A DNA stretch of 64,000 bases from an uncultured Acidobacteriota bacterium (GCA_963804995.1 CAWDSK010000001.1:64001-128000), one strand, 5' to 3'; positions 33,390 to 35,554 are shown, counted from the first letter of the stretch. Made by a program: numbers and translations. The notes: generated by a model from the sequence alone, not told the origin.

Positions 33390-33422
33390 ATCTGCGCTTT
33401 GGACCCTAGCGCGCATTTCTCA

Positions 33423-35342
33423 GTGCGCCCCAGGGGCGCAGATCACTTGTGGGTGGAAGTCCCACGCAGATAGTAGTCGGTAAGTCTGGTAGCTGACAAG
33501 CGGCTTGGGCCGGTAACGGGCCGGGCCGGAGCCTTGTGACAAAGGCCACCGAGGGTGGCTGAGCAACTCTGCAGGCCGTAACGTGAGTGAAGCCTGAGCA
33601 GGCCTCGAAAGTGAAGTCGTGGACGCCGACCCGCCTGAGAAACGGGGAAGGCTGCACCGGCCGGGAAGCCACCGACACGCGCACCGGTTCGGGTCCGCCG
33701 GGGTAGTGGGCACGGCATGTAGGGAGAGCGATCTGGGCAAATGGGGGAACCCCCAGGCGGGTGGAGAATCGCTCCAACGACCTCGCTAAGGAGGGCGGCC
33801 CGCTGGGGACTCGGAGAGGGTCACAGTACCGTGGAAGCCGGGTAACGCCGGGGGAGGGAAGGACCCTCACTTCAGGAAGGCTTGCGAAGAGGTCAAGGTG
33901 AGGTGATTGGCGATGAGCCTGCAAACACCGGAAGTGATCCGAAGGCTTCAGAGGAAGCTGTATCGCAAGGCGAAGGACGAACCGGAATACCGCTTCTACC
34001 TGCTCTACGACAAAATCTACCGCGCAGATATGCTGGCCCATGCCTACGAACTGGCGAAGAGCCATCGCGGCGCGCCAGGCGTGGATGGACAGACCTTCGC
34101 GGAGATCGAGACGCAAGGGCGGGAGAGGTGGTTGAAGGAACTTGGGAACGAGCTCCGCAGCAAGCGGTATAAACCTCAACCCGTGCGCCGGGTGATGATC
34201 CCGAAGCCGGGGGGCGGGGAACGACCGCTGGGGATTCCGACGATTCGGGACCGGGTGGTGCAGACCGCCGCCAAGCTGGTGTTGGAGCCGATCTTCGAGG
34301 CGGATATGGAACCCTGTGCTTATGGTTACCGACCGCAGCGCAGTGCGCAGGACGGCATTCAGAAAGTGCATGAGCTTCTCTGTGCAGGCTATACGGAGAT
34401 CGTCGACGCGGATTTGTCCAAGTATTTCGATAACATTCCACACCGGGAACTGATGATGTGTGTGGCCCGGCGCATCGTCGATCGGGAGGTGCTGCATCTG
34501 GTGAAGATGTGGCTGAAAGCTCCGGTCGAGGAGCGGGATGAGCAAGGGAAGCGGCGAATGACGGGAGGTCGGGGGAGCAGTCGTGGCACGCCGCAAGGTG
34601 GCGTGGCCAGCCCACTGCTCGCCAACCTCTACATGAATCGATTCCTGAAGTACTGGCGAATCACCGAGCGGGGGAAAGTCTTTAAGGCACAGATTGTCAA
34701 CTACGCGGATGATTTCGTGATCCTGACGCGGCAACGGGCGGCGGAGGCGCGAGACTGGACGCGGCAGGTGATGACGCGCTTGGGACTGACCCTGAACGAA
34801 ACGAAGACGAAACTGCGGAAAGCCCGGCAGGAGAGCTTCGACTTTCTGGGATACACGTTTGGCCCGCAGCGTTACCGGAAGGACGGCCATTGGTACTTGG
34901 GAGCAAGTCCGTCGAAGCAAAGCGTGGCACGACTGCGACAGAAGGTACACGAGGTGTTGGTGCCCGGCAATACCGAACCCTGGCCGAAGGTACGCGACCG
35001 GCTGAACCGCATCCTGCGGGGCTGGTCGAATTACTTTGGCTACGGCACCCGGTTGCCGGCGTACCGCGCTGTCGACAACCATGTGGCAGCCCGTGTTCGA
35101 CACTTCCTGAGACGGCGGCATAAGGTGTCCTCGCGTGGCACGCAACGCTGGGCGGACGACGTGATTTTCGGACCGCTGGGGGTGTTGCGGCTGCGGCGGG
35201 TGCATCTGGGCGCCCGTCCGTGAGCCTGACGGTGAACCCTGTCGGGGAGCCGGATGCGGGAAATCCGCACGTCCGGTTCGATGAGCGGGGAGGAGAAACG
35301 GAGCAGCGACCTCGCTGCCACCGCGCCCCTCCTCGACTCTAC
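33423..35342 (+). mobile_element. Group II intron (1920 nt, IIB-like, non-IIC)
   Basis: 5' GTGCG; domain V GAGCCGGATGCGGGAAATCCGCACGTCCGGTTC; domain VI ending CTCGACTCTAC; EBS1 TGAGAAA (33636-33642) complementary to the 5' exon TTTCTCA. Confidence 0.93.
33913..35223 (+). CDS. ltrA: Group II intron reverse transcriptase/maturase without endonuclease domain
   Basis: GAPGVDG, RPLGIPTIRDR, GTPQGG..SPLLANLY, YADD, FDFLG, maturase NRILRGWSNYF. Confidence 0.95.
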   Translation: MSLQTPEVIRRLQRKLYRKAKDEPEYRFYLLYDKIYRADMLAHAYELAKSHRGAPGVDGQTFAEIETQGRERWLKELGNELRSKRYKPQPVRRVMIPKPGGGERPLGIPTIRDRVVQTAAKLVLEPIFEADMEPCAYGYRPQRSAQDGIQKVHELLCAGYTEIVDADLSKYFDNIPHRELMMCVARRIVDREVLHLVKMWLKAPVEERDEQGKRRMTGGRGSSRGTPQGGVASPLLANLYMNRFLKYWRITERGKVFKAQIVNYADDFVILTRQRAAEARDWTRQVMTRLGLTLNETKTKLRKARQESFDFLGYTFGPQRYRKDGHWYLGASPSKQSVARLRQKVHEVLVPGNTEPWPKVRDRLNRILRGWSNYFGYGTRLPAYRAVDNHVAARVRHFLRRRHKVSSRGTQRWADDVIFGPLGVLRLRRVHLGARP

Positions 35343-35554
35343 CCACGCTTGGATACTCTAAAGGAATTGCCGGAAGGGCGGCGCTGAAGCCCCGCCCTTC
35401 CAAACCCGTCGTGAGATATCCGGGCTAGCTGGGATGGCTTCAATCCTTTTATCGCGCGATACCTGAAGTGGAGGATAGAGCTTTTATCGATTAGGTGAGA
35501 AAGCAGCAGATGCGGCGACTCTTGCTGCAAGACAGCATCTGAAAATGAATCGGT

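Follow-up and report, generated by a model that had tools for sequence, protein, structure and literature searches.

A lineage g3 group II intron that likely homed into the terminal repeat of an IS1380-type MITE in an uncultured Acidobacteriota bacterium

Known introns in transposon ends and the class of the window intron

Homing of a group II intron into the ends of a transposon has been described for RmInt2 of Sinorhizobium meliloti GR4, which targets both inverted repeats of ISRm17 (PMC4615759, PMC5894124), an element of the ISNCY family (PMC10194956). The authors of RmInt2 already argued that each element offers two targets on opposite strands (PMC4615759, PMC5894124), and the distal exon is read by the protein in both RmInt1 and RmInt2 (PMC4615759). 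A second precedent besides RmInt2 was not found in the open-access literature in its accessible portions, nor was a published report of a g3/F intron in IS1380 ends or MITEs. Among introns of the latter class, Ni.ha.I1 of Nitrobacter hamburgensis is assigned to lineage g3/former class F, with its transposase target listed as IS4 (PMC3552965). EBS2-IBS2 pairing is dispensable for in vitro splicing of IIE/IIF ribozymes, and DNA targets lay outside the scope of that study (PMC3753933).

The window, a stretch of 64,000 nucleotides from an uncultured Acidobacteriota bacterium (assembly of 7.55 Mb in 9 contigs, 92% complete), holds a group II intron inside a miniature element with IS1380-type ends. 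Its features are as follows.

16674..16775, no strand: sister MITE of 94 bp (16678-16771) with CTAT direct repeats, unoccupied (sequence comparison)
33406..33409, no strand: left flanking repeat of 4 bp, CTAG, a presumed target-site duplication of the MITE, paired with 35425-35428
33410..33422, plus strand: outermost 13 bp of the IS1380-type repeat at the left end of the MITE, the 5′ exon, with IBS1 TTTCTCA at 33416-33422
33423..35342, plus strand: group II intron of 1920 nt, GTGCG...CTAC, lineage g3 (former class F), in 3 identical copies in the genome
33476..33481, plus strand: alpha, GTCGGT, with compensatory changes with alpha-prime across relatives
33636..33642, plus strand: EBS1, TGAGAAA, in the d3 loop (exon covariation and fold)
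33671..33676, plus strand: alpha-prime, ACCGAC, capping a stem-loop as its terminal loop, in the manner of IIE/IIF introns (covariation with alpha; fold)
33706, plus strand: EBS3, G, pairing with C35343; best covarying column for exon +1
33913..35223, plus strand: intron-encoded RT/maturase, about 436 aa from ATG, YADD motif, RVT_1 and GIIM, endonuclease domain absent
35245..35342, plus strand: domain V (AGC triad, 5-nt loop) and domain VI (bulged A); RF00029 at 49.3 bits, fold z = -4.4
35343..35424, plus strand: rest of the 95-bp MITE, the 3′ exon, with a REP-like hairpin at 35372-35401 and the right terminal repeat at 35411-35424
35425..35428, no strand: right 4-bp flanking repeat CTAG (sequence)

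On sequence grounds we file the intron under lineage g3, former class F, with a predicted IIF-type RNA. Its protein is 64% identical over 421 aa to that of Ni.ha.I1, 44% identical to an A. caldus g3 fragment and 33-38% identical to three further references, a g1, a g2 and an unclassified one. A clade with both g3 references, inside which Ni.ha.I1 nests, has a FastTree support of 0.89, in a tree that lacks g4, class D and named class E references and whose deep in-clade branches are poorly supported. Ni.ha.I1, for which our plasmid match coincides with the coordinates in Table S2 (PMC3552965), is similar in length (1911 vs 1920 nt) and has the same domain I layout, but it carries another EBS1 and interrupts a transposase coding sequence, not a terminal repeat. 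The window intron resembles the IIE/IIF ribozymes in the small size of its ribozyme, in a domain V loop of 5 nt and in a stem-loop that carries alpha-prime at its tip, whereas the apparent EBS2-IBS2 duplex of the introns in that study is not evident in the IS1380-targeting members here (PMC3753933). With RmInt2 it shares the absence of an endonuclease and the use of insertion-sequence inverted repeats as natural target; RmInt2 differs in being a class D intron with EBS2-IBS2 pairing, reported from one strain and directed at ISRm17, while the window intron is g3/F, has no clear EBS2 and targets IS1380-family ends, here MITEs and lone ends.

Two other memberships were considered and dropped. The intron works like RmInt2 and is not of RmInt2 type, as it groups with g3 (in a tree without a class D sequence) and its target is IS1380-type. 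Class C (IIC) was rejected on the 7-nt EBS1, the AGC triad, the IIF-type d3 region and insertion in the ends of 1.6-kb elements.

Guide pairings of the intron and the MITE that holds it

A preliminary description had placed an endonuclease-less group II intron at 33423-35342, and the boundaries, Rfam domains and RVT_1 plus GIIM reading frame agree with it. Domains I to VI are present, together with a GUGYG start, an AY end, a catalytic domain V and a bulged-A domain VI; the Rfam matches are D1-D4-4 at 33447-33586 and D5/D6 at 35245-35342. The RT/maturase frame in domain IV is intact and without an endonuclease domain (RVT_1 1e-35, GIIM 1e-13, no other domains; TIGR04416 371 bits). A 665-codon frame on the minus strand (window 33406-35403) spans the entire intron and beyond and is probably a shadow of the GC-rich RT gene.

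Relatives were collected by a genome scan that returned 347, of which the best 80 were kept; 65 with a clean 5′ boundary were used and 15, which were truncated, rearranged or had another start, were left out. The 65 loci and the window, drawn from these best 80 of 347, collapse to 34 intron types at 95% identity. Across these types from the best 80 of 347, the intron columns most complementary to exon positions -1 to -7 are 33636 to 33642, in order, with Watson-Crick shares of 97, 100, 100, 94, 100, 62 and 74% and all four pair types represented. The EBS1-IBS1 duplex is Watson-Crick at 213/238 positions over the 34 types (10,000 shuffles: mean 95.5, maximum 135) and at 141/154 over the 22 distinct EBS1 sequences (shuffles: mean 58.3, maximum 93), again within the best 80 of 347; the shuffles ignore the phylogeny of the intron types, and the margin is large. 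TGAGAAA, already named as EBS1 in the preliminary description, is complementary to TTTCTCA, covaries with the 5′ exon and sits in the d3 loop of the minimum free energy (MFE) fold. The stem-loop described around it exists, but the stem that closes it reads CCCG/CGGG, not the CCG/CGG that had been given, and a CC bulge precedes the loop. The full domain I fold is no more stable than shuffles (z = -0.7; d3 region z = +1.5), so that the EBS1 assignment rests on covariation and not on energy. Position G33706 is 85% Watson-Crick with exon +1, with three pair types, over the 34 types (28 Watson-Crick, 1 G-T, 4 mismatches and 1 without data; best 80 of 347). Covariation across the relatives shows TGAGAAA to be EBS1, G33706 to be EBS3 and alpha and alpha-prime to pair.

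A column-by-column scan of exon -8 to -22 over the 34 types (best 80 of 347) did not find a clear EBS2 pairing. Its best columns, 33480 and 33616, both with exon -13, have two pair types only, and these signals look phylogenetic. As a candidate EBS2, GTGGAC (33619-33624) was ruled out because it is a helix strand pairing with GTCCGC. Among the best 80 of 347, IS1380-targeting members have at most 1-3 EBS2-IBS2 pairs; for the subclade that targets ATGTCSG, a 5-6 bp EBS2 duplex of GUGACA or GGACA with TGTCSC is plausible from sequence. EBS2a is confined to IIB1/IIB2 introns (PMC8643678).

Without the intron, as had been claimed, a 95-bp unit remains between two CTAG tetramers; this unit (33410-33422 plus 35343-35424) is non-coding and present as a single copy in this genome, as against 40 members for the end family and 7 copies for a 268-bp subfamily. 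A scan with the terminal-repeat consensus found 40 ends in the genome and 0 in a 2-Mb order-4 Markov simulation, so the IS1380-type ends are not due to chance. Identical 4-bp direct repeats flank 6/7 of the end pairs listed by the scan (CTAG four times, CTAT, CTAA), the other reading GTAG/CTAG, and two further copies of the 268-bp MITE have unequal flanks. The right boundary of the unit reappears in one peat metagenome run, where 35 contigs diverge from the reference behind 35425, 35427 or 35428. A matching end, at C6:843603, precedes a truncated IS1380 transposase by about 100 bp, and related ends occur on four full elements elsewhere; judged from these shared ends, the MITE is derived from the IS1380 family. 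A search of the 92% complete assembly for IS1380 transposases gave 9 partial matches and 0 above the family cut-off. An attC site and an IS630 end (TA duplication) were dropped as identities of the repeat in view of the 4-bp repeats and the IS1380 transposases found. A search of 28 genus relatives for the empty site gave orthologous loci that lack the MITE and are too diverged to show a single CTAG. In members of the 268-bp family (e.g., C6:1206282-1206549), IS1380-type ends surround REP-like palindromes, which recur at many sites elsewhere in the genome; these MITEs have a mosaic look, with IS ends joined to REP units.

The unit at 16678-16771, which the preliminary description had presented as an empty copy, is real and carries TTTCTCA|C with a full IBS1/IBS3 match at both ends (junctions 16690/16691 and 16759/16758), but with its CTAT repeats it is a sister MITE. 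Aligned with the window unit, it is identical at 67/97 positions when inverted and at 64/114 when not, with the matches concentrated within the terminal repeats and the REP-like hairpin, and C5:249864-249980 is a closer relative (77/118).

The intron site lies in sense orientation after an FrhB-like gene in an exosortase-associated polysaccharide cluster, in keeping with the sense placement in an EPS operon that had been proposed. The FrhB-like gene occurs in 4/28 genus relatives, and in three of these a glycosyltransferase comes next, without MITE, intron or methyltransferase; in two of the three it directly abuts the FrhB-like gene, and its window counterpart is at 36450. The tail of the FrhB-like gene of two relatives matches window 36431-36448, and this retained tail shows that about 3 kb (~33381-36430), with the MITE, the intron, a SAM methyltransferase (35555-36280) and a small ORF, is an insertion into the last codons of the gene. 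Transcriptional read-through across the intron is likely from this arrangement, and a promoter/terminator scan of 33200-35700 gave one match each, at shuffle level. The effect of splicing on downstream expression that had been proposed is a conceivable one. In public runs the best share was 0.16, none held this strain, and no 33422-35343 joint was among the 15 joints listed out of 48. Elsewhere in the window, a protein with an ice-binding-like domain (PF11999) and a PEP-CTERM-like tail is encoded at 15172-16089, with another PEP-CTERM protein (13979-14695) and an exosortase gene (55813-57018) in its vicinity, and a large serine recombinase extends over two ORFs at 59017-61092 (resolvase 60460-61092; recombinase plus zinc ribbon 59017-60444).

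Insertion sites in this genome and in other bacteria

Three copies of the intron, in the window and at C1:290417 and C3:1127187, are 100% identical over 1920 nt, which would imply recent mobility. When their 5′ exons are tabulated, every full copy is preceded by TAG-C[C/G]CGCA[A/T]TTCTCA and lies at +13 of an IS1380-type end (3/3). Two 5′ relics of sister introns (C3:690095 and C6:286690) are at +13 of the same end type, and all 5/5 junctions of the clade in this genome are therefore at this position. Of 823 unoccupied [AT]TTCTCA[CT] sites, 30 are IS1380-type ends; for three of three copies in ends this gives p ~4e-5, or ~1e-3 if two copies count as one event, an enrichment inflated by survival bias towards intergenic sites. 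The distal exon at the window site reads CGCG where the consensus YTAG|CCCG has CCCG. GC skew is weak and noisy, and by a proxy for the replication strand (orientation of a ~40-copy intron; weak skew) 3/5 junctions fit and one relic does not, the window copy being ambiguous.

The genome also holds other group II introns. The ~40-copy intron is unrelated to the window intron, has a 528-aa frame, near-identical copies (e.g., C2:581151-581843) and a strong per-contig strand bias. A third family with a 462-aa frame and 6 copies groups with the g2 reference B.th.I3, and two near-identical ORF-less introns lie by REP-like sequence, along with one deleted and one truncated RT-bearing relative.

C1:25682, C6:294142, C6:296098 (the C6 pair in tandem), C4:160871, C5:1087159, C5:1126309: copies of the third intron family
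near C3 45200-46001, C3 98300-99061, C6 2113751, C9 153945: ORF-less introns and damaged RT-bearing relatives

Targeting of dispersed MITE and IS ends, claimed from the window, gains from the relatives, some of which sit at +13 of full IS1380 ends. Among the best 80 of 347, insertion is at +13 of the left end in L003, L010 and L019 and of the right end in L025, in elements of 1609-1633 bp; these four encode PF13701 transposases, with the NF033539 cut-off passed by the two tested, and L011 and L063 have a transposase directly downstream too. The strict IS1380-end pattern is found at 27 of the 65 loci (14 from one Bryobacterales genome), an ATGTCSG-type motif at 22, mostly in Alphaproteobacteria, and other sites at 16, about 7 of which resemble degenerate IS1380 ends (all within the best 80 of 347). 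The habit of using IS1380 ends recurs, in the same best 80 of 347, in Acidobacteriota, Alpha- and Deltaproteobacteria and one actinobacterium. Of 8 junctions in closer relatives, 5 are end-like, 1 is doubtful and 2 (L087 and L088, from genus relatives) are at unrelated sites; the changed guide of L087 matches its unrelated site. Judged from these insertion sites, IS1380-end targeting is common in the clade and not universal.

The Bryobacterales genome carries 16 copies in several different ends, and its intron haplotypes are mostly independent of MITE type, which indicates separate homing. At the Bryobacterales loci L027 and L031, an intron-bearing MITE end and the adjacent 1.1 kb are duplicated, stopping at a degenerate end-like sequence; duplication of a MITE end with its flank is expected of ISEcp1-style one-ended transposition. 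A sister subclade of 22 loci (L047-L076), chiefly from Alphaproteobacteria, is inserted behind ATGTCSG...TGGCA or ...CTCTG motifs, further copies of which often lie alongside the insertion, and GUGACA is plausible as its EBS2.

Homing, its alternatives and the biology of the lineage

We consider it likely (probability about 0.85) that a g3 intron retrohomed 13 bp into the repeat of an IS1380-type MITE, guided by EBS1/EBS3 pairing with TTTCTCA|C. Priming on the nascent strand at the replication fork is established for RmInt1-type introns. In the window, the intron would be transcribed in sense from the polysaccharide operon, spliced with its own maturase and reverse-spliced into another repeat, where, being endonuclease-less, it would prime reverse transcription on the nascent strand at a replication fork. 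The protein, by recognising YTAG|CCCG in the distal exon, would add the extra selectivity for IS ends among many 8-nt matches, a step proposed because convincing EBS2 pairing was not found for IS1380-end targets. Dispersed intergenic IS1380 ends would offer many low-cost sites in both orientations, and it is a reasonable inference that the MITE/IS-end family serves as a safe harbour. The three copies are most simply read as recent, separate homing events into older MITEs.

The alternative that survives best, though we regard it as distinctly the less probable course, is a single homing into a MITE followed by copying of the composite by an IS1380 transposase using the outer 13 bp. It would cover the two non-window copies only. 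Both of these are in the same end of the same 268-bp MITE subfamily, and their two MITEs are mutually closest, with 2 differences as against 4-9 to four complete empty copies (in a 7-copy subfamily from which one truncated copy was left out). The Bryobacterales loci L027 and L031 also share 1,136 bp of 3′ flank (99.7%) and one private intron SNP. However, both differences between the two copies fall within the 268-bp MITE and 0 in the 1920-nt intron (p ~0.015 if they moved together), the C3 copy is flanked by TTAG/CAAG, which is not a fresh duplication, and no IS1380 transposase reached the family cut-off (9 partial matches in an assembly 92% complete). Since the window copy is in a different MITE, homing is needed anyway; carriage may occasionally occur.

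Insertion at any TTTCTCA|Y, with survivors only in harmless intergenic repeats, would dispense with a preference for IS ends, and only about 8 nt of RNA-DNA pairing are demonstrable for IS1380-end targets, with EBS2 covariation not prominent. Several loci (L008, L009, L014, L035, L040 and L043) indeed lie at degenerate sites with the same guides, but at positions -15 to -10 these sites keep a likeness to the end consensus. That 5/5 junctions in the genome fall in ends, which make up 30/823 compatible sites, also argues against it, as does the guide, which follows end variants across hosts among the best 80 of 347 (TGAATAA, TGAATTT, TGAATTA, TGAGATA); we hold this reading to be improbable. Slightly less probable still is a class C-like recognition of a stem-loop in single-stranded DNA, formed by the paired repeats or the REP-like hairpin, for although both MITE units of the window fold strongly (z = -4.6 and -6.6) and L038 and L070 insert in hairpins, +13 also serves as the site in IS elements of 1.6 kb, in which the two ends are widely separated, and in ends without a partner within 3 kb, the REP hairpin here lies 30 nt downstream and in full IS copies does not adjoin the site, and the intron has a 7-nt EBS1 and is not class C.

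Beyond retrohoming at the window site, we suggest tentatively, and with considerable doubt, that a whole sub-lineage of g3 makes the tips of dispersed mobile repeats its home. The protein of these introns would read a fixed distal signature that begins in the host-derived target duplication and reaches into the transposon end, a swappable 7-nt EBS1 would retarget the intron among IS1380 end variants, ATGTCSG repeats and REP-like hairpins, and IS1380 transposase would sometimes carry the intron via the outer 13 bp. If this is true, becoming cargo of the IS1380 transposase would be a second, DNA-based route of spread for the intron.

The window intron follows the same strategy as RmInt2, from which it differs in intron class, in IS family and in breadth, and introduces no new principle. 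Homing into transposon ends, published for a single class D intron from one strain of rhizobia, extends with it to another lineage, and the g3 case adds a different IS family, several phyla and non-autonomous MITEs. It raises the question whether an intron at +13 puts IS1380 ends out of action or is carried along by them. With 22 EBS1 variants, matched targets and no clear EBS2, these introns make a good system for the DNA specificity of endonuclease-less IIF introns.
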